NCBI GenBank assembly: GCA_963789945.1
Contig: CAWBMN010000008.1
Coordinates: forward strand, 20,810 to 84,809
Direction of reading: 5' to 3'
Origin: an uncultured beta proteobacterium
Lineage (GTDB): Bacteria > Pseudomonadota > Gammaproteobacteria > Burkholderiales > JACQAP01
Length of the DNA stretch: 64,000 nt
This document shows, piece after piece, positions 11,752 to 64,000 of this stretch (its first letter is position 1; each line of letters starts with the position of its first letter). The position numbers and the translations under genes are program-made. The notes beneath the pieces are model-generated. The model ran no database searches. It saw nothing but the letters and a program-made list of their open reading frames with translations, and was not told where the DNA came from.

Positions 11752-13137
11752 ATGACCCTTGCTGCAGCAGAACTCCAGACCGCGATCGACGAATTGCGCG
11801 TGATATTCAAGGATCGCCTCTCTACAAGCACCGGGGTGCGCGACCATCACAGCAAGGACGAATCCTGGCACCACCCGCACCGGCCGGACGCGGTGGTGTT
11901 TCCGAACTCCACCGAGGAAGTCGCCGAGATCGTCCGCATCTGCGCGCGGCACAACACGCCGGTCGTCGCCTATGGCACCGGCACCTCGCTCGAAGGCAAC
12001 GTCATTCCGCATCAGGGCGGCGTGGTGGTGGACCTGGCGAACATGAACCAGGTCCTGCGGGTGAATGCGGAAGACCTCGACGTCACCGTGCAGGCCCGCG
12101 TCACCCGCAAGGAATTGAACGTGCACATCCGCGACCAGGGCCTGTTCTTTCCCATCGACCCCGGCGCTGACGCCTCCCTCGGCGGCATGGCGGCGACCCG
12201 CGCGTCCGGCACCAACGCAGTCCGCTACGGCACCATGCGCGAGAACGTGCTGGCGCTGACCGTGGTGCTCGCCGACGGCCGCATCATCCGCACCTCGCGG
12301 CGCGCGCGCAAATCCGCCGCCGGTTACGACCTCACCCGCCTGTTCGTCGGCTCAGAAGGCACGCTCGGCATCATTACCGAAGTGACATTGCGGCTCTACG
12401 GCATTCCCGAGGCGATGGCCGCGGCGGTGTGCTCCTTCGAAGGCATCGAAGGCGCGGTCAAAACCGTGATCCAGACCATCCAGCTCGGCATTCCGGTGGC
12501 GCGCATCGAATTGCTGGATGACGTGCAGATGGACTCGGTGAACAAGTTCTCGAAGCTGAACTACCCGGTCAAGGACACGCTGTTCATCGAATTCCACGGC
12601 ACCGATGCGGGCGTCAAGGAACAGGCGGAGCTGGTGCAGTCGATCGCGGCGGAGCACGGCGGCGGCGAGTTCAAGTGGGCGACCAAACCCGAAGAGCGCA
12701 GCCATCTTTGGACCGCGCGGCACGACGTGACCTACGCCAACAAGGCATTGCGCCCGGGATGCGAAATCTGGGCGACCGACGTGTGCGTGCCGATCTCCCG
12801 TCTCGCCGAATGCATCCTCGAGACCAAGAAGGATCTCAAGAAAAGCTTCCTGACGGCGCCGCTGGTCGGCCACGTCGGCGACGGCAACTTCCACCTTGGC
12901 TTTCTGATCAACCGCGACGACCCGAAAGAAATTGCCGAAGCCGAGCGGCTGAACGATCGGCTGGTGATGCGCGCACTGGCGATGGACGGCACCTGCACCG
13001 GCGAGCACGGCATCGGACTGGGCAAGATGAAGTTCCTCACCGCCGAGCACGGCGAGGCGGTCGCGGTGATGCGCCAGGTCAAGAAGGCGCTCGACCCGCA
13101 GAACATCATGAATCCGGGAAAAATTTTCACGTTGTGA
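11752..13137 (+). CDS. FAD-linked oxidase, D-lactate dehydrogenase/GlcD family
   Basis: GTGTSLEG, FPIDPGADASLGGM, GSEGTLG, GHVGDGNFH, GEHGIG, NPGK. Confidence 0.92.
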   Translation: MTLAAAELQTAIDELRVIFKDRLSTSTGVRDHHSKDESWHHPHRPDAVVFPNSTEEVAEIVRICARHNTPVVAYGTGTSLEGNVIPHQGGVVVDLANMNQVLRVNAEDLDVTVQARVTRKELNVHIRDQGLFFPIDPGADASLGGMAATRASGTNAVRYGTMRENVLALTVVLADGRIIRTSRRARKSAAGYDLTRLFVGSEGTLGIITEVTLRLYGIPEAMAAAVCSFEGIEGAVKTVIQTIQLGIPVARIELLDDVQMDSVNKFSKLNYPVKDTLFIEFHGTDAGVKEQAELVQSIAAEHGGGEFKWATKPEERSHLWTARHDVTYANKALRPGCEIWATDVCVPISRLAECILETKKDLKKSFLTAPLVGHVGDGNFHLGFLINRDDPKEIAEAERLNDRLVMRALAMDGTCTGEHGIGLGKMKFLTAEHGEAVAVMRQVKKALDPQNIMNPGKIFTL

Positions 13138-43418: not shown

Positions 43419-44735
43419 ATGAACACGACCTCTTTGGCCCTCGATCACCTCCTGCGCGCCGTGGGCGATCCGGTCGCCGAGCTACGCGACATCGGTCTCG
43501 GTCATCCGGAGTTCGATCGAGCACAGACGATCCGGGCCGCAGCCGGCGTCCTCGCGAAAACCCCGGATACCTTTCCCGCAATCGCACAGGCGATCCGGGC
43601 GGTCGATGAGCTTGCGGCATCGCCACGAACACGCGCCCACCTTGCCGCGGCCAAAGCGTGGCTGTCCGGGAACCCGGTCCTCGCCGCTGAAAGTTATGCC
43701 TTCATCCTGGGCCGGTGGCCTCGGGATTTGCTGGCGCTGCGGCTCGCGCTGTCGTGCTACTTCTACCTGGGCTGGCATGAGCAGCTTTGCGCGCTCGTCG
43801 ATGCAGTAATCCCGGCGTGGAGGCGCGATCAGCGCGATTTCGGATTCGTGCTTGCCATGGCGTCGTTCGCGCACGCTGAAACCGGCGACGGAGCGCGCGC
43901 CGAGGCACTGGGGCGGGAAGCGCTGGCGGACGACCCTGCCTGCCCGTTGGGTGTGCACGCGGTCGCGCACGCGTTTGCCGGGTCCGGGCGGCACCGCGAC
44001 GGCGCGCAATGGATGCGCGATCAGCGTGGCCACTGGGCCACGCAGAGCCGCATGTGCACTCACAACGCATGGCATCTCGCCATGTTCGACGCCGAGGCGG
44101 GAAACGTTGCGTCGGCGCTGGGCATACTCGACACCTGGTTGCTTCCCGCCAGCGCGGGATCGGCACCCGATGCGTGCGACGCCGCTGCGCTGTTATGGCG
44201 CCTCGCGACCGACGGGGTGGACGTCGAAGGCCGCTGGCGCAAGGTTTCCGACGCCTTCGAACGGACAATGACCCCGGGTTTCTGGCCCTATATCGACCTT
44301 CATGCGGCTCTCGCACACTTCAGTGCCGGGCAAAGGGCGCGGGCGCAACGTCTGGTACATGAGATCGAGCGCTGTGCGGGAGGCAGCGACTACTCGGCGC
44401 TGCGGGCGCGGCACGTCACCCGGCCGGGTCTGCGTGCGCTCGGCGCCTGGAGCGAAGGCCGTTATGGCGAGGCAGCGGAGTTACTTGCAGGCCTGCAACC
44501 GGTTCTCGGCGACGTTGGCGGAAGCCGCGTCCAGCTCGAAGTCTTCAAGTGGATCGAGCACGAGGCCGTCCGTCGGCAGCACGCCGAGCAATGCCAGCAA
44601 CCTCGACCCCCAGCAGCAAAGGAGCAAGCCCTGCCCCGGATCAAAGGTGCTTTCTTCGAGCCGCAGAAAAAACGGATTGCCTCAAGCTCCGCGTTCACCA
44701 CCCGGCGCACAACCCCAATAGCCGTGGAGAGTTAG
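43419..44735 (+). CDS. TPR protein, TTC38-like
   Basis: WPRDLLAL, GVHAVAH, HNAWHLA, DAAALLWRL, GGSRVQ. Confidence 0.75.
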   Translation: MNTTSLALDHLLRAVGDPVAELRDIGLGHPEFDRAQTIRAAAGVLAKTPDTFPAIAQAIRAVDELAASPRTRAHLAAAKAWLSGNPVLAAESYAFILGRWPRDLLALRLALSCYFYLGWHEQLCALVDAVIPAWRRDQRDFGFVLAMASFAHAETGDGARAEALGREALADDPACPLGVHAVAHAFAGSGRHRDGAQWMRDQRGHWATQSRMCTHNAWHLAMFDAEAGNVASALGILDTWLLPASAGSAPDACDAAALLWRLATDGVDVEGRWRKVSDAFERTMTPGFWPYIDLHAALAHFSAGQRARAQRLVHEIERCAGGSDYSALRARHVTRPGLRALGAWSEGRYGEAAELLAGLQPVLGDVGGSRVQLEVFKWIEHEAVRRQHAEQCQQPRPPAAKEQALPRIKGAFFEPQKKRIASSSAFTTRRTTPIAVES

Positions 44736-44940
44736 GGAAGCTCTGACCAAGTTCCACATGCGCGACCGAGGCGATTCGGGTCGAGGGCAAGACGGCGAGG
44801 ACGCCGTGTAGCCGGACGGCTGTGACTCGTTAGCGGTACGCCCGTTTGCGGGAGCAGCCGTATAAGCGCTCCGTTTATTTTGGTCAACACAGCCTCCATG
44901 CGCTCCTACCCGCCCCGATGCTACGCTCGCCGAGTCCGGA

Positions 44941-45189
44941 GCGCACATAAGGAGGAGCCGACGCACGCTCCAGCGCAAGCTCGCCGAGGCGGACCTGACC
45001 TACCAGAAGCTGGTCGACGACACGCGACGAGACCTCGCGATGCGTCATCTCGAGGACCCGAGGCACTCCATCACCGACGTCACCTTCCTGTTGGGCTTCT
45101 CACAGCAAAGCGCCTTCACGCGCGCGTTCAGGCGCTGGACGGGCATGTCGCCCAGCGCCTACCGCGCGCAGCATTCCGTGGCCGCCTGA
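44941..45189 (+). pseudogene. AraC-family C-terminal HTH remnant
   Basis: Frame 1: SRRTLQRKLAEADLTYQKLVDDTR...ITDVTFLLGFSQQSAFTRAFRRWTGMSPSAYR; no start codon after the upstream in-frame stop. Confidence 0.82.
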
Positions 45190-50546: not shown

Positions 50547-50640
50547 GAACGGTGTTCTCAATCGCTTGCCTGTCTTCCATAGTGCCGCCTCAGCTCCCGC
50601 AATCGGGAAAGTGTTGCACGTTTGCGTGGCCCGAGGGAGT

Positions 50641-50809
50641 CTTCATGATCTCCGGACGGGAGATCAGCCGGCGCGCACGCTTTGAGGCCCGGAATCTCTG
50701 GAAGTTATAGGATGCGCTTATGGCCTGAACACGTGACTCTGAGAGCAAGTGTGGCCTCTCTATTCTTGCGCTTGAATCAGAAAATCAGAGCCTTGCGGCG
50801 GTCCGACCC
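50641..50809. repeat. ~165-bp dispersed repeat (MITE/REP-like), copy 1
   Basis: TTCATGATCT..AGATCAGCC..GCGCACGCTTT...CTTGAATCAG...CTTGC..CGGTCCGACCC; similar to 57215-57383 and 58642-58800. Confidence 0.78.
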
Positions 50810-55402: not shown

Positions 55403-56149
55403 ATGCGAATGAACACCACCCTCGTAATCAATCCAAAGGGCGGGTCGGGCAAGACTACCGTCACGACCAGTCTCGCCAGCTATTTTGCCGCCAGGTCGGT
55501 GCCCGTAACGGTCATGGATTACGACCCCCAGGGATCGAGCCTCAACTGGCTACGTCTGCGCGATTCGTTTCGGAACCGGATTTACGCCGCCAATGCCGCG
55601 CCCCAGAGAGGCAACCGGTTGCGCGGGATTGAGATGCATGTGCCACCAGACACGCGACAACTCATTATCGACGCGCCGGCGGGCGCTTCCGGCCTTTTAA
55701 TCCAGGAGATGCTTGCCCGGGCGGACTGCATCGTGGTCCCGGTCGCGCCTTCGGCAATCGATATTCATGCCACCGCCAACTTCATTCGGGAATTGCTGCT
55801 TGCGGGCCGCATCCGGATGCGCAATATCCGCCTGGGGGTGGTCGCCAACAAGGTTCGCAATTCCATGCCGACCTACGAACCGCTCGAGCGCTTTCTCAAA
55901 TCTCTCAGTTTGCCGCTGCTGAGCCGCCTTCGCGATTCCGACGTCTATCTCCAGGCCGTGGAATCCGGATTGGGGCTCTTCGAAATGGACGAGGCGACAT
56001 CGAAATCCGAGCGCGAGCAATTCCGGCCCGTTGCCGAATGGGTGGAAGGTCCGCAGTCGCAGCTGAAGTCGCAGCAGATCGGGGCCGACCGAAAAATCAT
56101 CCAACTGCCCAGCCACCCACGCCTGCTTGCCGGCGTGGGATCGAATTGA
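55403..56149 (+). CDS. Orphan ParA/MinD family ATPase
   Basis: Deviant Walker A NPKGGSGKTT, DYDPQGS, IIDAPA; no parB nearby. Confidence 0.88.
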   Translation: MRMNTTLVINPKGGSGKTTVTTSLASYFAARSVPVTVMDYDPQGSSLNWLRLRDSFRNRIYAANAAPQRGNRLRGIEMHVPPDTRQLIIDAPAGASGLLIQEMLARADCIVVPVAPSAIDIHATANFIRELLLAGRIRMRNIRLGVVANKVRNSMPTYEPLERFLKSLSLPLLSRLRDSDVYLQAVESGLGLFEMDEATSKSEREQFRPVAEWVEGPQSQLKSQQIGADRKIIQLPSHPRLLAGVGSN

Positions 56150-56214
56150 AAAATCGACTGACCCCGTTCAGCACGATAATCACGACGTCACGGGCTTTCA
56201 CGACAGTCACGTAG

Positions 56215-57048
56215 TCACGGCACTTCGAACGGCTCTAGCGCGCGAATCGCCGCGAGCAATGCAGCGTCGAACGCATCGGGCTCTGCGCGCTCCGCCCCGC
56301 ACATTGCATCCAGCCCGGAGCGGATGTCTTTTTCCAGAATTCCGATCGTATTGTTGGCTTCGTAACCCTCGCGCGACCAGTCGATGTCGTGGAAGTGGTC
56401 GCCGAACCAGGTCGATCCGGAACTGGCCTTCATGACTGATCGCAGCGCTTCCAGGTCCACGCCCAACTCGCGGGCGCGGGCGTAGGCACGGCGCACGGCT
56501 ACGACGGAGGCGCTGGCCACGTAATTGTTCAGAACCTTTGCCGTCATGCCAGCGCCAAGGGGCCCGAGTCTGAACACATGCTGACCCATGGCCTGGAATA
56601 GGGGCGTCAACCGGTCCAGAGCGTCATCGGGCCCGCCCAGCATGAAGCTGAGCTTGCGCAGACGTGCCGCATGCGGGGCGCCAGACATGGGCGCATCGAT
56701 GAGGGTGACGTCAAGCGGAAGCCGGCTGCGCAACTCCGGCATGAAGCGCGGCGACAAGGTGGAGCTCACGATCAACGTGCCCGGATACTGCGCGCGCGTG
56801 AACAAGGCCTGACGATCGAAGCACAGCTCGCGGCTCTGCGTCACATCCCGAACTACTGAGATGACAACCTGCACGCGACTGGCGAATTCCGTGGGGTCCT
56901 CGAGCATGCGTAACCGGAAGGAACCGAACTCACTGGCGGGACGGACATCGAGCCCCCAGACTTCATAGCCGGCGTGCTGCAACGCCTGTGCCATCGGCAA
57001 TCCCATCGAGCCGCAACCAGCGACACCCACTACCGGGCTCTTGCTCAT
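56215..57048 (-). CDS. NAD(P)-dependent oxidoreductase, 3-hydroxyisobutyrate dehydrogenase family
   Basis: GCGSMGLPMA, DAPMSG, GAGMTAKVLNN, KD. Confidence 0.88.
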   Translation of the reverse strand: MSKSPVVGVAGCGSMGLPMAQALQHAGYEVWGLDVRPASEFGSFRLRMLEDPTEFASRVQVVISVVRDVTQSRELCFDRQALFTRAQYPGTLIVSSTLSPRFMPELRSRLPLDVTLIDAPMSGAPHAARLRKLSFMLGGPDDALDRLTPLFQAMGQHVFRLGPLGAGMTAKVLNNYVASASVVAVRRAYARARELGVDLEALRSVMKASSGSTWFGDHFHDIDWSREGYEANNTIGILEKDIRSGLDAMCGAERAEPDAFDAALLAAIRALEPFEVP

Positions 57049-57214
57049 GTCGAACTTTCGCTCCCCATCGATCGGTCCTGGTCATTGTACGGGGCATGCG
57101 CTGAGGGCCCCAACCGCCAAGGTATTTGCGAAATTCGCTTTGGGAAGTCGTGAAGGCGCATGTCGCGGCATCGCCGAAGTATCCGGAGACAGTTCACTGC
57201 CGGGGCGAGGGGGC

Positions 57215-57383
57215 CTTCATGATCTCTGGACGAGAGATCAGCCAGCGCGCACGCTTTGCGGCGCAGAAGCTCTAGAGCTTAATGCGTGCTTTTCTAGTTT
57301 GAGAACTTGTCTCTAAGAACAAATGTGGGCTCTCGTGCTTGCTCTTGAATCAGATAACCAAAAACTTGCCGCGGTCCGACCCC
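57215..57383. repeat. ~165-bp dispersed repeat, copy 2
   Basis: CTTCATGATCTCTGGACGAGAGATCAGCCAGCGCGCACGCTTT...AAACTTGCCGCGGTCCGACCCC. Confidence 0.78.
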
Positions 57384-57436
57384 GCTGAGGCAGGCCCGTG
57401 CTTCCCCTAGCCCGATCCGCTGGGTCCCTTGCGCTT

Positions 57437-58288
57437 TCAGTCTTCCTCGCCGAAGAATTTCAGGATTTCTTGCACCGCCCATTCCGGCTTCTCTTCCGGA
57501 ATCCAGTGTCCGCAGTCCTCGACGACGCCGCCGCGCACGTTGCTGGCCACGCGCCGCCAGGATTCGAGCGCGAGCATGCCGCGTCCCCGGCCCTTCGCCC
57601 CGCCGTAGCAGAGGATCGGCATCGGCAGCTTGCCCTGCGCGAGGAAGGCCTCGTTGTCCTTCACGTCCTGCGGCGTGGCGCGATAGAGATTGAAACCGGC
57701 GTGCATCGCGCCCGGCTGGCGGTAGCAGCGCAGGTACTCGGCCTGCGCTTCGTGCGGAATCGCGTTCGGCCGCGCGCCCCACACCCTGTAGAAGAAGCCG
57801 AGATAGATGTGCTCACGCCCGGCGGTAAGTTCCTCCGGCAAGTCCGTCTCCCAGTGCAGGCCGTGGTGCCAGCGGTTGTTGAACATCACCGGCGTGCCGT
57901 CGCCCGGCACGGGCACGTCGAAGATCACCATTCGCCGCACCGCCTCGCGATGCTGCGCGGCCAGCGAAAAAGCCGTCGGCCCGCCCCAGTCGTGACCGAC
58001 GACGAAGAACGCTTCTCGCCCGAGCACGTCATGCATGAGACGCCAGACGTCGTTGGCGATGGTCTTCTTGTCGTAGCCGCCTTCCGGTCGGGAGGAATCA
58101 CCAAGACCGCGCAGGTCCGGCGCGACTACGCGGTACTTCTTCGCCAATCCGGGGATGACGTCGCGCCACATGTACCAGGTCTGCGGCCAGCCGTGCAGCA
58201 GAACGACCGCAGGGCCCCTTGCCGGCGGTGAGTAGTGGAGTCGGACGTCGCCGAGGTCGGCGAATTCATGGCGCGGGGATTCGGGCAT
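57437..58288 (-). CDS. Alpha/beta hydrolase (epoxide hydrolase-like)
   Basis: LLHGWPQT, DLRGLGDS, GHDWGG, CGHWIPEE; apparent compensating indels near 58215-58232. Confidence 0.88.
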   Translation of the reverse strand: MPESPRHEFADLGDVRLHYSPPARGPAVVLLHGWPQTWYMWRDVIPGLAKKYRVVAPDLRGLGDSSRPEGGYDKKTIANDVWRLMHDVLGREAFFVVGHDWGGPTAFSLAAQHREAVRRMVIFDVPVPGDGTPVMFNNRWHHGLHWETDLPEELTAGREHIYLGFFYRVWGARPNAIPHEAQAEYLRCYRQPGAMHAGFNLYRATPQDVKDNEAFLAQGKLPMPILCYGGAKGRGRGMLALESWRRVASNVRGGVVEDCGHWIPEEKPEWAVQEILKFFGEED

Positions 58289-58578
58289 GGTCGGTTCGAA
58301 TGGATCGCGGCATCGGTCAGTACGCTGCCTCCCGCGCCCGCGCACCGCGGAGAAGCCGCCACGCCGGTGCGACCACCGGCGCGGCGCAATCATCGCACAC
58401 CGGGGCTACTGCGCTTGTAAGCGACCTACCGAAGTCCGTTGTATGCCGCGTGTGCGTTGCGAAGCATATCTCGGCGGCGACCTGACGATCTGTCTAGAGA
58501 AAAGGCGGCCTTTATGCAATATACCAAGCGCGACCCGGCTCTCGCCCCTCCGTCTGGCTAAGGCCTACACCTAATGCC

Positions 58579-58626
58579 TACACCCAACGCAGAGGCGCAG
58601 AGTACGCAGAGTACGCAGAGAAAAAC
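58579..58626. repeat. Left arm of a CGCAGAG tandem repeat (inverted partner at 62268-62316)
   Basis: TACACCCAACGCAGAGGCGCAGAG is the exact reverse complement of 62293-62316. Confidence 0.82.
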
Positions 58627-58641
58627 AGAAACGTTGGGGTG

Positions 58642-58800
58642 TTCATGATCTGTAGCTGAAATATCAGCCGGCACGCACGCTTCGAGGCGCAGAGAGCTTA
58701 TAGCGTGCTTTTCTGGTCTGAAAACGTGCCTCTAAGCTCAAATCGGGGGTCTTTTTCGTACTCTTAAATCAGAGAATCAGAAACTTGCTGTGGTCCGACC
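58642..58800. repeat. ~165-bp dispersed repeat, copy 3 (a short partial end also lies near 58935-58960)
   Basis: TTCATGATCT..ATCAGCCGGCACGCACGCTT...AAACTTGCTGTGGTCCGACC. Confidence 0.75.
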
Positions 58801-58982
58801 TGACTGAAGGCGGTGCTAAACCTCGACTTCTTCATTCCAACCTCCTGGCTGAAAATGTGCCAGAAAGTTCTACTTCCAAGATGTCCGGTTAATGGGGAAG
58901 CTTACGCTATGACGATAGCCAGATCTCAAAGCACGATCAGAAACTTGCCGCAGTCCGACGCGGTTGGGATCTGGGCCATAGA

Positions 58983-59556
58983 TTACTGTTGCATCCAGTG
59001 ACACGGCAGTTGTGCACCGCTGATATTCGCATGCAGTTGCGCGAACGACGGGCTCTTACACGCTATCGCTGAAGCTTTGCATTTTTCTAACAATCGAACA
59101 CCATCTACTCGCTCAGAGTAGGTCTGATTGTTCTTTCGGAATGCTTTCGACAACCGGCCTTTTCCACCGTTTCCGTCAATGCCAGGTGCCATGTCCACTA
59201 TGAGATCTTCTAGGCAAGAGCTTGCGCATCAGCAATAATCCAATTCGACCATGCGGTCCGCCACATGGGCACAAAGCGGAATAGTCACACCTAGTTGCGT
59301 TACTTTTTCGATTAGGGGCAGCCTCCATATCTGCAGCGGACATTTCACGCTTTTCTCTATCGAGAATTACAATTACCTGTGCCGGCCTATAGGTTACATC
59401 TACTATGGCTTTTATCATGATGGCGAGTCGTTCGATCGCCACATCCTCCCCATTCGAAGGAATCTTTCTAATTACGGACTTCCCCTCACATTGCTTTTGC
59501 AGAAAATCCTTTTCCAAATCCCCCTCTACGATAAAAACCACTTTACCCTTAGGCAT
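58983..59556 (-). pseudogene. TOPRIM-like (DUF4276-type) partner of the ATPase, frameshifted in this sequence
   Basis: MPKGKVVFIVEGDLEK...VILDRE; C-part DG..GK..Y...DG.RL....SPSF in another frame; start overlaps the inferred ATPase stop. Confidence 0.6.
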
Positions 59557-60917
59557 CGTCAAGGGCTCCCGATAATAGAAACCCAAACCAAATCCAGAAC
59601 TGCCAATCAACTTGCGCAAATGTTGAGGATTGCGCACGCGACGCGCCTCTGTACGGCCTCGCCGAAAAGATACAACTATCACCTCTTCTGGTTCTGCGGC
59701 ATTTAGAATCGTCTCGACTGATGTGTCGACATGAACATGAAAGAGTTATCTTGCAATTGGTTTCTAACTAATTTGACGGCCTCTCTTTGAACAAATGGAT
59801 GCACGAAGTTCTCCGGTTCCTCTATCGCCATGATATTGGAGTTCGTAAATACCGCCGTTACGAATGCCATCCATTTGAGCGTACCATCCGAAAGTGCGGC
59901 CAGCGGTATTTGGGATTTCGCGGGTCCCGCAAGAGTGATCCGGACACGGATCGTGTTCTCGAACTGATCGTTCGTCACAGCTAGATTTGCCATTGCCGGA
60001 TAGGCCAGCTTGAAGAACTCTATTAGGCGATCTAATTTAATTCCGCGGGAAAACGGAACGTCAGTTGCTCGATAAATAAACCGGAAGTACCCTGGATCTG
60101 ACCTTGGTTTTCCACGCTTCAATGCGAATAGGCTCGCATACAAACCAGAGCCGTCTGGGCGAATACCTGGAGTTTTTGCGGAGTCCTCCGGGAGTCGTAT
60201 TCGACTTGGGTGAGGATTAAATATCATCCCTCTACCGAAATCAGAATACAGCGGCCCACCGAGTTCACTCGGTAGGAGTGCATATGCTAGAACAATTAGG
60301 GGTGCGTCGGAACTTACACTTTTCTCTACCTGTTGAATTGGAGTTAGCTCTGGAGTCTTTCCTGATGAGACATAGATTGGGGAGAATTTGATACCCTCAA
60401 TCAAATTGAGGTGGTCGCAATTTACACTCCCATCTGCATTTCCTGAAACCTGCACTTCCGCACTCCACTCAGTGATAGCCCGTGGGTCAACATCAGGGTC
60501 TTGTGCAACGCTAAATCGTATTGATTGCTTCGCGAAAAAAACACTCTCTCGATCATCTGACAATTCCAAGGTGAAGGCATACTTGTAGTATAGGATTCGA
60601 TCATCTTCTTGTTCGTCTTCTGCGCGTTGGCGATGCCGAAATCTGGCATCGGCCTTGATCTTTCCGAAAACCTTCGCTTTTATCTGTGATTGATACCGAT
60701 TGGCACCAAGCTTCCTAAAAACAGCACCGCTTCCACCGAGATTACTCACAATTGTCGACAGATCGTTTACCGCTAGTTCCGTAAGGAATTCAAGAAAACT
60801 AATGACGTTAGTTTTTCCGCTACCGTTTGGGCCAACCAGTAAATTCAGACCCGGTCGGATATCTAAACGAAAGCGATTTAGAGATCTGAATCCGTCGACT
60901 TCAATGCTTAGGATCAT
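59549..60917 (-). CDS. ABC/AAA_21-type ATPase (C-terminus frameshifted near 59720)
   Basis: GFRSL, Walker A GPNGSGKT, LSDGT signature, IEEPENFVHP, STH; continues as ETILNAAEPEEVIVV in a shifted frame. Confidence 0.85.
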
Positions 60918-61091
60918 GGTCAGGCTTCTCGAGCGTAGTAACAGTCACACCTTCATAGACTTGAGTCGGCGTATTCGCGATGACAATAAGTTCAAAAACC
61001 GGGTCAGGCCTGCGTAATTGCATTGTGGCGCAGCCCCGATGCCATTAGCCATGATAGAACCATTTTGAACTCCAGAGCTCGCGTCGCGGTC

Positions 61092-61271
61092 CTACCGATC
61101 CTCTCCCACGAAACCCTGCTGAATACTTGAGAGGAGCTTCAACGCCTCAGCCGGCAGCGGCCCCTTCTTCGCGCTCTGGGCGGCGTGGTCCAGTTGTTTC
61201 AGGGTGGAAAGGCGCACCAGCGTCGTGGTGAGATCCGGGTTCGACAGGACGTTGCGTATCGAGGTTTCCAC
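61092..61271 (-). pseudogene. Degenerate 3' copy (about 180 nt) of the aldo-keto reductase gene
   Basis: Encodes VLSNPDLTTTLV.LSTL.QL.HAAQSAKKGPL.AEALKL.SSIQQ.FVGE.R*; matches about 63363-63543. Confidence 0.9.
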
Positions 61272-61317
61272 GCGCCGGGGTCAGCGTAACGACACACATT
61301 AAGTGGATACCGGAAAG

Positions 61318-61458
61318 CTAGGCTTTCTTCCTCTTTCCAGAGCGTCGCTTCGCCTTTCTTGCGGGCTTCTTCGCCATCTTCTTTCTTGCCGGACGCTTCT
61401 TGGTGGATTTCTTCTTAGCCGAGGATTTCTTTGCGTGCTTCGCGAAACCGTTAGTCAT
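61318..61458 (-). CDS. 46-aa Lys/Arg-rich histone H1-like peptide
   Basis: MTNGFAKHAKKSSAKKKSTKKRPARKKMAKKPARKAKRRSGKRKKA*; ATGA overlap with the upstream stop; GGGAG RBS. Confidence 0.65.
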   Translation of the reverse strand: MTNGFAKHAKKSSAKKKSTKKRPARKKMAKKPARKAKRRSGKRKKA

Positions 61459-62012
61459 TGGGTTCTCCCTTTGGGCGGAAAAACTTGGTGTACGGCCTTC
61501 ACATAGTTGGACATAGCGTTACGCGCGGAAAGCAGAAGCGCAACACCGGTTAAAGTTAGTACTACCCAATATGGCCAATCAACGGTGGGCCCTGGGGCAA
61601 AAGCACGAGCTGGGATCCAGAGCAATAAAGCAGTAAGAGTGTTCGCATAGAATTGGTAGTAGCGGTAGAAGTTGTCTCGGATGGTAAGCAAGACAGGTAG
61701 ACACCCGCCATCCACCCGAGACCAATCTAGAGAAAGTCTTTGCACTGCAAAGCGCCCCAACGCAGGCCAATGAATAACAGTGTCAATAATTATCCATCTC
61801 AGTCCGCTTACAACAAGACCAAAGGATACGGATGCAAGTAGCACGAAGAGGAATAGCCCGACACTTTGTTCTTGGTCACTTGCAGCTGCCATCCATGCCG
61901 CAGCAACTGGCAGATGATATGAAACCGCATGGACTACCACAAAGCCAGGCGCCACAAATGCAAGGACGGTACCGAAGTCGAGGCCCGATGGGAATTGAGT
62001 TTCAGAGGCCAT
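61455..62012 (-). CDS. Hypothetical 4-TM membrane protein
   Basis: Hydrophobic segments; APGF, RYYQFYAN; lower-GC context. Confidence 0.7.
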   Translation of the reverse strand: MASETQFPSGLDFGTVLAFVAPGFVVVHAVSYHLPVAAAWMAAASDQEQSVGLFLFVLLASVSFGLVVSGLRWIIIDTVIHWPALGRFAVQRLSLDWSRVDGGCLPVLLTIRDNFYRYYQFYANTLTALLLWIPARAFAPGPTVDWPYWVVLTLTGVALLLSARNAMSNYVKAVHQVFPPKGRTQ

Positions 62013-62267
62013 TGGTAGACTTGTTAAGAAACGCGATTGCCATCAAGCCGTCACATTTTCCTGAAGCGCTTAGCGCCACGAATGGCGGGAAGGGATCGGG
62101 TATTTCTTGCACTGCCAAAGTATACAAAAGCCAAGAACTGACTCGATTCTACGCGCGAAGATCTAAATCGTCCCCACAAACCTCACAAAGATGTCCCACT
62201 CCACCTTTGAGAATCTGCTGCACGTATCAACTTCCGGATTGTCGTCTCTCCATTCTCCTTCTCTTTA

Positions 62268-62316
62268 GTTTTTCCTCTGCGATCTTTGCGCCCTCTGCGC
62301 CTCTGCGTTGGGTGTA
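62268..62316. repeat. Right arm of the CGCAGAG repeat
   Basis: GTTTTTCCTCTGCGATCTTTGCGCCCTCTGCGCCTCTGCGTTGGGTGTA. Confidence 0.82.
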
Positions 62317-62335
62317 AGCCTGAAGCGGCATACAC

Positions 62336-62411
62336 CTACCGAGCCTCCCCCACGAAACCCTGCTGAATGGTAGAGATGAGCTTCAACGCCTCGGCCGGCA
62401 GCGGCCCCTTC
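62336..62411 (-). pseudogene. Second degenerate 3' copy (about 76 nt) of the aldo-keto reductase gene
   Basis: Encodes KGPLPAEALKLISTIQQGFVGEAR*. Confidence 0.88.
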
Positions 62412-62651
62412 AATCTCCCGGGGTATTGTCCCTTCAAAGAGTGTCACGAGAATCCGGAACGGGCACTTCGTGATCCTTTATTTCAGTCTTGTCACGGCAT
62501 TCAGCGCATTTAATGCATAGCACCAATTCGATACGTGCTCTATATTTCTTCACAGATAAGAGGATGATGCGGCATTGCACCAATCGGCTTTTCAGTAAGC
62601 CGGGCGCCGGCCGATCCCTTTCGGTCAGCGGATCTCATAAGGAGTATCGCA

Positions 62652-63077
62652 ATGACAAAGTTCAAATCCCTGTTTGCCGCCTTCCTTGCCGGGGCTTCTC
62701 TCAATGCCTTCGCCGCCGACTGGAACATGGTGTCGTCCTCGGCTGAGGAGCAAGTGTTCGTCGACTCGCAAAGCCTCATCAAGGGTACGGACAACATCAT
62801 CCAGGTTCGCATACTCGAGAACTTCGCCGACACGAGGAACATGGGTCATGGTTTTTACGATCACAAGTCCCGATTCATGTTGATGGCGGTTGACTGTGAG
62901 GCCGGTGCTGTCAGCTATGAGCAGTGGAGTCTGCATGCCGATGCGCTCGGCACCGGCGCCACGGTATGGGCCGACGGCATGCAAGGCGGTCCGGCCTTCT
63001 TCCGCCCTGAAGCCGGAACCGGCTACGAACGCGTCTTGGAAACAGTCTGCAACGTCTCGATCGCGATGCGGAACTGA
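62652..63077 (+). CDS. Surface-adhesin E family secreted protein
   Basis: AAGGAG RBS; signal ending AFA; W..V.....VFVD..S, DC, C-terminal VC. Confidence 0.72.
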   Translation: MTKFKSLFAAFLAGASLNAFAADWNMVSSSAEEQVFVDSQSLIKGTDNIIQVRILENFADTRNMGHGFYDHKSRFMLMAVDCEAGAVSYEQWSLHADALGTGATVWADGMQGGPAFFRPEAGTGYERVLETVCNVSIAMRN

Positions 63078-63121
63078 TTTTTGTTTCAGGAACACGCACT
63101 CACCTTTTAGCAATGTGGGTT

Positions 63122-63360
63122 TCCCCTTGTGGCGCGCCGAGCAGCTCGACTCGACGAGGGGAAGTCGACGAGGACTGTTCGAGTCCCATGGCAGGGCACG
63201 TTGTGTGTGCCCTGCCAGGTCGAGTTCCGCAGTCGCCTCGTCGAGTCAGGCAGCACAGGGCCACCCCTGATAAGGGGCGCGACACCGGGGCGGCCTTCTT
63301 TTGGTTCCTTTTCTTGGCCGCGCAAGAAAAGGAACTAGCCGCCGGGCTACCCCCGGCCGG
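63122..63360. repeat. Highly structured intergenic element (multi-hairpin repeat or ncRNA candidate)
   Basis: Stems GACTCGACGAGG/CCTCGTCGAGTC, GGCAGGGCAC/GTGCCCTGCC, CCCCT/AGGGG, GTTCCTTTTCTTG/CAAGAAAAGGAAC, GCCGGG/CCCGGC. Confidence 0.7.
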
Positions 63361-63362
63361 TT

Positions 63363-64000
63363 CTACCGAGCCTCGCCCACAAAGCTCTGCTGAATACTTG
63401 AGATCAGCTTCAGACGCCTCGGCCGACAGCGGCCCCTTCTTCGCACTCTGCGCGGCGTGCTCCAATTGTTCCAGGGTCGAGAGGCCCACCAGCGTCGTGG
63501 TGAGATCCGGGTTCGACAGGACGTAGCGTATCGAGGCTTCGACCAGGTTCTTCGCATATCCCCGCTTTACGACTTCACCGAACCGCACCGCGCGGGCCAC
63601 GTCGCCGGCATAGCTGGAGGCCGAGCCGATCGGGTCCACGCTCTGCATGCCGAGCGGATGCCGGGTTTCGACGCCGCTCAACGCGCCACCCGCCAGCACA
63701 CGGATGCCGATGGTCCCAACGCCGCTCGCATGCGCGCGCGCAATGAGATTGCCGTAATCCTGGGCCGGGTAGTTAGACGGCAGCTTCGCCCCCGCGCTTG
63801 GATTGAGCAGGTTGTAGCTCACCTGGGCTGTTTCGAAAGCATCCAGAACACTGTGAATGGCCGGCGTGTCACCCAAAGCCGTAAACCCGAAATGGCGCGC
63901 CCTGCCCTGCTCTCGCAAGCGCGCGAAGGCGGGCAGCACCTGTTCGCGCACAGACTTAGGGTCGATGACTCCTTCGCGCTTCGCGTCGGAAATCGGATTG
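63363..64000 (-). CDS. Aldo/keto reductase, 5' part outside the window, with an apparent 1-nt insertion near 63413
   Basis: L.EQGRARHFG, AQVSYNLLN, IRVLAGGAL, TTLVGLSTLEQL; the natural end LKLISSIQQSFVGEAR* lies in the neighbouring frame. Confidence 0.85.

Follow-up and report, generated by a model that had tools for sequence, protein, structure and literature searches.

The stretch analysed here, hereafter the window, comprises 64,000 nucleotides of contig C8 (CAWBMN010000008.1, positions 20,810 to 84,809 of the forward strand) in the genome assembly of an uncultured beta proteobacterium of the order Burkholderiales (GCA_963789945.1; hereafter G000, 18 contigs, 4.47 Mb, contamination given as 4.63%). 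The last part of the window holds an aldo-keto reductase (AKR) gene on the minus strand, the 3′ end of which (63363-63543) occurs twice more downstream in the form of isolated tails, a shorter copy 1 and a longer copy 2, with different cargo genes between the copies (Table 1). An initial annotation made from the letters alone had proposed this serial duplication, with both copies ending at the stop codon and diverged from the gene. Repeat search, BLAST, nhmmer, and gapped alignment bore out both statements.

The repeat search returned a family of three copies (61091-61167; 62335-62411, at 91%; and 63362-63438) and a 130-nt pair (61142-61271 and 63414-63543) at 90% identity. In the gapped alignment, all three AKR ends reach the TAG codon and then diverge, and the frame of copy 2 is intact throughout. 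When copy 2 was compared by BLAST with the whole assembly, it matched four places only, three on C8 and one on contig C5 (E 1e-89 to 1e-23), the last being the end of a second AKR gene that we treated as an additional allele of the locus. A profile of 19 AKR tails, run against G000 with nhmmer, recovered the copies found by BLAST and no others. Thus, the insert at the AKR gene is bracketed by direct repeats taken from the 3′ end of its target, and the target is regenerated.

The AKR orthologues of related genomes are 328 amino acids long. Relative to both tail copies and to all relatives, the assembled resident gene carries one extra base at ~63413-63415, which takes the frame on to 63100. The stop at 63363 given by the initial annotation therefore holds in the corrected frame but not in the gene as assembled. 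The AKR gene on C5 is also frameshifted (L003 ~1201-1229) relative to the 328-aa orthologues. The frameshifts of both versions may be real lesions or sequencing errors; since the second gene is affected as well, sequencing error is a fair suspicion for the resident one. The two versions head long collinear stretches: C8:84163-266416 matches C5:982-188952 over ~182 kb at ~86-93% identity, starting exactly at the AKR gene. This doubling represents either two related genomes in one bin or a very large duplication.

The locus was compared with 36 other species genomes of the same uncultured Burkholderiales genus (G001-G036), in 12 of which an AKR orthologue was detected by DNA (G032 gave no match), and with a metagenome set of 80 loci retrieved with the AKR protein as the query. 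These comparisons provided insights into the origin of the tails. Copy 2 is 87-89% identical to AKR genes, and its differences from the G023 gene fall on the three codon positions as 5/4/17; the pair of functional genes from G028 and G023 differs as 1/3/15. For copy 1 and the tail on metagenome contig L126, too, most differences from functional alleles lie at third codon positions, and the changes in copy 1 are mostly synonymous. An old tail in G023 has its codon positions hit evenly (4/6/4). Because the differences are biased to third codon positions, the C8 tails diverged as parts of other working AKR alleles and did not arise by duplication of the resident gene in place and subsequent decay. 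The AKR ends of L126, G023, and L111 match copy 1 at 94-95% identity, the resident gene at 86%. Since its identity to its positional counterparts is lower (82% in G023 and 88% in G001), copy 1 appears to have been overwritten, or refreshed, by recombination with a functional allele.

Table 1. Features of the window, and gene tails repeated elsewhere in G000 (contig given where it is not C8 window numbering)
Feature	Position	Strand	Basis or remark
Resident AKR gene, 3′ two thirds	63363..64000	-	Pfam PF00248; gene extends past the window to ~64350
239-nt structured multi-copy element	63120..63358	-	second copy, folding, covariation; inserted 4 nt after the AKR stop
Adhesin-E family gene	62652..63077	+	Pfam PF16747; convergent with AKR
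AKR tail copy 1, 77 nt, last 25 codons and stop	62335..62411	-	repeat search, gapped alignment, nhmmer
Arm of a dispersed heptamer-repeat hairpin element	62256..62321	.	numerous short hits across contigs; immediately distal to copy 1
Cargo: 185-aa membrane protein, unnamed family	61455..62012	-	homologue search
Cargo: 46-aa Lys/Arg-rich peptide	61318..61458	-	ORF list; start overlaps the membrane protein gene stop
AKR tail copy 2, 180 nt, last 59 codons and stop	61092..61271	-	repeat search, gapped alignment, BLAST, nhmmer
HEC-01A/AriA-like AAA ATPase (AAA_21/AAA_15), candidate defence cargo distal to copy 2	59703..60917	-	Pfam, PADLOC
168-aa ORF beside the ATPase	59176..59682	-	no family match in Pfam and PADLOC scans
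Rest of variable region, with alpha/beta hydrolase gene (57437-58393)	57105..58800	-	Pfam, synteny
Conserved NAD-binding dehydrogenase gene, far syntenic hotspot border	56215..57048	-	Pfam; limit of the 91-97% DNA matches in G001 and G023
Alpha/beta hydrolase tail, 178 nt, 96.6%	C1:303641-313947 (L133)		9-kb two-partner-secretion insert between tails
HlyD-type gene tail, 92 nt	C1:327847-329759 (L134)		
Ysc84-type gene tail, 204 nt	C11:410747-413458 (L135)		
O6-methylguanine methyltransferase-type gene tail, 195 nt	C2:354572-362195 (L137)		

Cargo and neighbouring elements

The cargo enclosed between the two tails consists of the membrane protein and the basic peptide, neither of which had a Pfam or PADLOC match. 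A search of a large protein collection at E ≤ 0.001 gave 61 homologues of the membrane protein, none above 69% identity, and its matches in species genomes came mostly from Planctomycetota and Acidobacteriota (26-52% identity). Of 80 other genomes examined, 2 have direct repeats around the gene, neither of which could be linked to the tail of a gene. Because the homologues belong mostly to other phyla and repeats occur at so few of these loci, the cargo is foreign and brings no visible insertion device. Residues invariant in the family include W40, R72, D77, R117, and a QFY motif at 120-122.

Distal to copy 2, the initial annotation had placed a pair of ATPases. Only one of the two proteins could be assigned as an ATPase, its neighbour being an ORF of no matched family. 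The two genes have a low GC content (44-49%) and together are candidate defence cargo. At the matching position, G001 carries a different pair, composed of an AAA_21 protein and a DUF4276 protein (HEC-01A/B). We rejected the idea that the two pairs are one ancestral neighbour of the AKR gene, as the proteins align over the ATPase motifs only and the DNA does not align at all.

The interval between the AKR gene and copy 1 contains the structured element and the adhesin-E gene, as the initial annotation had described, but the adhesin-E gene lies on the plus strand. Together with ~190 nt upstream, it forms a module that is kept in C8, G023, G001, G028, L055, and L059. The 239-nt element has a second copy in the assembly (C7:386216-386448) and further copies in G021, G023, and metagenome contigs. 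Its folding is stable (minimum free energy z -6.46), and 13 pairs show compensatory change among six copies, while a search of 56000-64000 against Rfam at E ≤ 1 gave no match, this element included. The element is missing between the adhesin-E and AKR genes in G028, and in three of the four public runs assembled, contigs pass from 63079 directly to 63363/63367. In L059 and L061, copies of it stand on both sides of the adhesin-E module.

Elements with heptamer arms are found at both edges of copy 1 (62445-62472 and 62256-62321), and also at 58570-58630. A minimal CACGAAG...CTCGTG hairpin sits between the upstream region of the adhesin-E gene and copy 1. Further along, the alpha/beta hydrolase gene is bracketed by repeats of ~170 nt (57206-57382 and 58636-58800; 75-78% identity), another of which is found at 50632-50809, and a relative of this repeat is present in the G028 hotspot. 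A second repeat family, of ~233 nt, occurs at 44733-44965. Its first 83 nt alone occur at more than 20 places in G000, with many more copies in G023, G028, and G033 at 90-100% identity. The 233-nt family shares no BLAST similarity with the 239-nt element.

The locus in relatives and tail repeats at other genes

The interval between the AKR and dehydrogenase genes is a hypervariable transfer hotspot. Synteny is conserved on the AKR side, and on the other side it is regained only at or below 57104 in G001 and G023. Its length is 6.3 kb in C8 against 27.5 kb in G001, and each genome compared has different content there. Most of the cargo is assigned, by family matches only, to defence and toxin-antitoxin systems. 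In G001, the AKR gene is followed by a histidine kinase, the adhesin-E gene, a 77-nt tail, and the HEC-01A/B-type pair, the HEC-01A-like family being shared with C8. In G021, it is followed by Mrr_cat and GajA/GajB; the nuclease and this Gabija-type pair, with GajA split over two ORFs, lie at L029 3960-9737 after the AKR gene and the 239-nt element. In G028, the adhesin-E gene abuts the AKR stop, and an AbiJ-like protein and an M78/DUF6932 protein are encoded further along. G002 carries a methyltransferase with DUF1902 and HigB, and metagenome contig L126 a BrnT/BrnA pair. In G022, msrB follows directly, while C5, G023, and G018 have an unnamed gene.

Several relatives also carry AKR tails. 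G001 and G023 have one tail of 72-77 nt each, with a left junction identical to that of copy 1 and lying beside the conserved upstream region of the adhesin-E gene. Two metagenome contigs, L058 and L126, carry a ~320-nt tail distal to BrnT/BrnA and have their cargo/tail junction in common. In G002, a frameshifted piece of AKR (codons ~134-219) lies 3 kb downstream of the intact gene and is cut by the contig end. In total, four or five independent left boundaries were found, at 77, 180, ~320, and ~590 nt from the stop; the 77-nt boundary is one junction common to C8, G001, and G023, and the 180-nt boundary belongs to C8 alone. The extent of the repeats is not constant and they share no common core, and the sequences that follow the stops form several unrelated groups. 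The initial annotation had described an accumulation hotspot at the end of a protein-coding gene, with no integrase in view, and had asked for a comparison of relatives. That description was upheld and the arrangement recurs in relatives, where a layout without the membrane-protein cassette was also found: G001 has the adhesin-E gene, the 77-nt tail, ~15 nt like the flank of copy 2, and the HEC-01-type pair, which is the C8 order minus the cassette and one tail. The resemblance ends after these ~15 nt, the DNA beyond being unrelated, and the G001 arrangement has diverged flanks.

The hotspot also contains fragments of other genes: G028 has a truncated binding protein, and G019 and G036 have pieces of a hydrolase. 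Such fragments point to illegitimate joins in the interval. The short hydrolase-like pieces are near the AKR end (L033 of G019, 11922-12050; L031 of G036, 1453-1569) and are 65-74% identical to the alpha/beta hydrolase of the window over ~40 residues. The hydrolase gene may once have neighboured the AKR gene, as the sequences suggest.

No recombinase or transposase family was detected by Pfam in the 30 ORFs of the 27.5-kb interval of G001, in 88 ORFs downstream of AKR in nine other relatives, or in 58 ORFs from a set of 13 metagenome contigs, from which L061 was excluded as nearly a copy of L059; these make 176 ORFs in total. The ORFs for these scans were called by a simple rule that took the longest frame above a minimum of 60-90 aa, from which small or overlapped genes could escape. 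The initial annotation had asked for an integrase to be looked for elsewhere in the genome: G000 has seven matches to PF00589, all on other contigs and none on C8.

The same signature is found at other genes. To find local direct repeats, we compared G000 with itself and filtered the hits for few copies and for where they lay with respect to the ends of ORFs. At three or more genes other than AKR, in addition to less clear cases, the last 90-200 nt of the gene recur a few kb downstream (Table 1), and the repeats end at the stop or within ~25 nt of it. The insert at the hydrolase locus L133 carries a 2166-aa TpsA-like gene and a 529-aa TpsB-like gene. Empty sites, in which the hydrolase gene has one tail only and is followed at once by the distal flank, occur in three of five relatives (G023, G001, and G033), the gene-to-flank overlap being absent in G028 and G021. 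When the HlyD-tail locus was compared across the genus, the matches were a mixture of intertwined paralogues. The 68 ORFs at nine tail loci of G000 gave no integrase match. The cargo/tail junctions of six cases, inspected by eye without a formal motif search, showed no common motif.

Proposed insertion anchored on gene tails and competing explanations

Because the boundaries vary, recombinases are missing from the scans, the targets are unrelated genes, the tails come from other alleles, and the hotspot holds gene fragments, we favour, with a modest degree of confidence, insertion and displacement without an integrase, anchored on the homology of gene tails, as proposed for Rhs arrays. The initial annotation had offered homology-anchored recombination with DNA from relatives as its alternative reading. 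The recombination itself fits the data better than the integrative elements that it put first. A source in relatives is not shown for the membrane-protein cargo.

The analysis shows directly the repeats, where they are bounded, that they stem from other alleles, that integrases are absent from the scans, and that other genes have the same signature. How the DNA recombined, in what sequence the events took place, and how the DNA came in are inferred as follows. Incoming DNA that carries an AKR tail beside foreign cargo would pair with a chromosomal AKR tail, either the end of the gene itself or an older remnant. It could enter as a circle through a single crossover, or as a linear piece with both ends matching the tail. 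The outcome would be cargo bracketed by two tail copies, with older material displaced distally. The founding tail at a locus would need one illegitimate join, which would fix its arbitrary left boundary; thereafter, the unit of cargo plus tail could move into any relative that has the gene. We also think that an ordinary double crossover could bring a linear piece of tail, cargo, and tail into a gene end that has had no previous insertion. The most economical history of the window is the insertion of a cassette into an older module with the 77-nt tail. In this history, the old adhesin-E and 77-nt-tail module, common to G001 and G023, would have had the defence pair directly behind it, as in G001, and in a later step the 77-nt tail would have received the membrane-protein cassette with its own 180-nt tail by recombination. 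G000 encodes RecA and a member of the ComEC family, which offers weak support, as the ComEC family also matches 10 of 14 control genomes.

The arrangement at AKR can also be read as a tandem accretion of site-specific elements. Stripped-down, cis-mobilizable cassettes would carry the AKR tail in their attachment site, their tyrosine or serine recombinase having been lost or acting in trans. The architecture is the classic one, with direct repeats of the 3′ end, a regenerated gene, and older units lying distally, and tandem elements separated by partial tRNAs have been described for tycheposons (bioRxiv 10.1101/2020.12.28.424599). The clustering of breakpoints at the stop codon and the clean, single-tail empty sites of the hydrolase locus also suit this explanation, and any of the PF00589 proteins could act in trans. 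It is nevertheless unlikely. No recombinase was found in the 176 ORFs downstream of AKR or in the 68 ORFs at the other tail loci, the repeat length varies from event to event (77 to ~590 nt), and the targets are unrelated genes with no shared motif seen by eye. Moreover, the cargo family is flanked by repeats at only 2 of 80 loci elsewhere, and BLAST and nhmmer found no other tail copy in G000 that could be a resident attP. The integrative elements of the initial annotation, which regenerate the end of their target gene, are disfavoured by the same absence of recombinases, the varying lengths, and the recurrence of the signature at unrelated genes.

The tails could instead be what is left of tandem AKR paralogues, or the gene end could have been duplicated in place, have drifted, and have had cargo inserted afterwards. 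G000 has many local paralogues, and the frameshifted fragment of G002 is longer than the tails and lies downstream of an intact gene, as such decay would leave it. However, no two full-length AKR genes stand in tandem at the genus loci (12 other genomes and metagenome contigs of at least 77% identity), setting aside the further AKR-like pieces on the distant contig L130 (64% identity); the initial annotation had named full paralogues at the positions of the copies as the finding that would speak against it. Duplicated units would also share their flanks, whereas the sequence after each tail differs from its first bases, and the third-codon bias and the closeness of copy 1 to AKR genes of other species rather than to the resident one point away from decay. 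We consider this explanation very improbable. An artefact, in which the assembly strung together copy 2 and the cassette from alleles of two co-assembled strains, has several circumstances in its favour: the two 182-kb versions, ~88-90% identical, begin at the AKR gene, both AKR versions are frameshifted, copy 2 is seen in one assembly only, and contamination is given as 4.63%. Yet the left junction of copy 2 joins a unique cassette to the middle of an AKR tail, and misjoins at repeats would not be expected to create such junctions. The copy-1 junction is found independently in G001, G023, and a public contig, and the 320-nt tail junction in two separate metagenomes. An artefact is therefore extremely unlikely.

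Homology-anchored insertion has its own difficulties. A donor allele in which AKR, the membrane cassette, and a tail follow one another was not found among the genomes and contigs compared, and an origin of the cassette cargo in relatives is not shown, because its nearest homologues reach 69% at best and belong mostly to other phyla. The founding illegitimate join was not observed, and a recombinase may act in trans. Homology breaks 0-15 nt from the stop codon in ~15 lineages, which could mean a preferred site. The tails are short (77 nt for copy 1), so that few positions underlie the contrasts in identity. One assembly alone shows the copy-2 arrangement, and that assembly carries the second, ~89% identical version of the neighbouring 182 kb. 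No public run used covers the cassette or copy 2: parts of the window are contained in 20 of 24 runs, none of which holds half of its words (best 0.21), and the contigs from four runs cover only the adhesin-E gene, the 239-nt element, AKR, and copy 1, leaving 60600-62160 almost bare. A joint between 61175 and 63455 in a read contig was considered as an excision product and rejected, as it is a 151-nt AKR contig of a relative split between two homologous places.

Known systems and implications

The arrangement resembles the Rhs tip arrays, in which an intact gene is followed by a string of variable-length 3′ fragments of the same gene clade with acquired material between them. The mechanism proposed for these arrays is the excision and insertion of circles by homologous recombination, which needs no integrase (Jackson et al. 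2009, PMC2935791). The repeated piece of the Rhs arrays is a conserved core, and the cargo is a toxin tip fused to that core with an immunity gene. At the AKR locus, in contrast, the repeated piece is a complete tail of an enzyme gene, the tails end at the normal AKR stop and are not fused to alternative toxin tips, the cargo consists of separate genes (adhesin-E, membrane protein, and BrnT/BrnA), and the gene product is unchanged. A similar likeness exists with the type VI secretion system (T6SS) immunity arrays of Vibrio cholerae, which have been explained by homology-facilitated illegitimate recombination as a proposed mechanism (Kirchberger et al. 2017, PMC5361080); effector-immunity modules are added serially beside a conserved anchor and older modules shift distally with no integrase. 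Those arrays retain orphan immunity genes under selection, whereas the AKR locus retains non-functional tails and unrelated cargo. The same type of recombination has been proposed for dimorphic loci generally (PMC2884548).

Tycheposon arrays at tRNA genes are alike in that repeats of the target 3′ end separate stacked units, the newer ones lying next to the intact target; they differ by their fixed-length attachment sites and by the element-encoded recombinase carried by some members, and neither feature was found at AKR (bioRxiv 10.1101/2020.12.28.424599). With its syntenic flanks, differing content, and defence and toxin-antitoxin cargo, the AKR locus also resembles integrase-poor hotspots of horizontal gene transfer, defence islands, and the minimal mobile elements of Neisseria. 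Such hotspots lie between conserved core genes and lack recognisable mobile elements. Exchange through two flanking genes leaves no duplicated tail, whereas the AKR tails would mark events anchored on one flank. Tandem accretions are also formed by CIMEs, which are cis-mobilizable elements without an integrase.

The present case is a well-supported example of a process that has been put forward for polymorphic-toxin loci and is here extended to the gene of an ordinary enzyme. The tail pattern is present at four or more genes of G000. We tentatively put forward that, in this lineage, a gene tail may act as a portable homology arm, so that a unit of cargo plus tail could be inserted, stacked, refreshed, or deleted by RecA alone in any relative that has the gene; we regard this broader proposal as possible but doubtful. 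If true, it would constitute an integrase-free counterpart of integron-like accretion, operating at many ordinary genes and helping to build defence islands, and it would address the open question of how defence islands and transfer hotspots gain genes without the machinery of mobile elements. Duplicated gene tails are a readable footprint of one-sided, homology-anchored insertion, recording the number of events, their rough order, and the alleles involved. Should the pattern prove general, sequence alone could suffice to date hotspots and to trace their donors.

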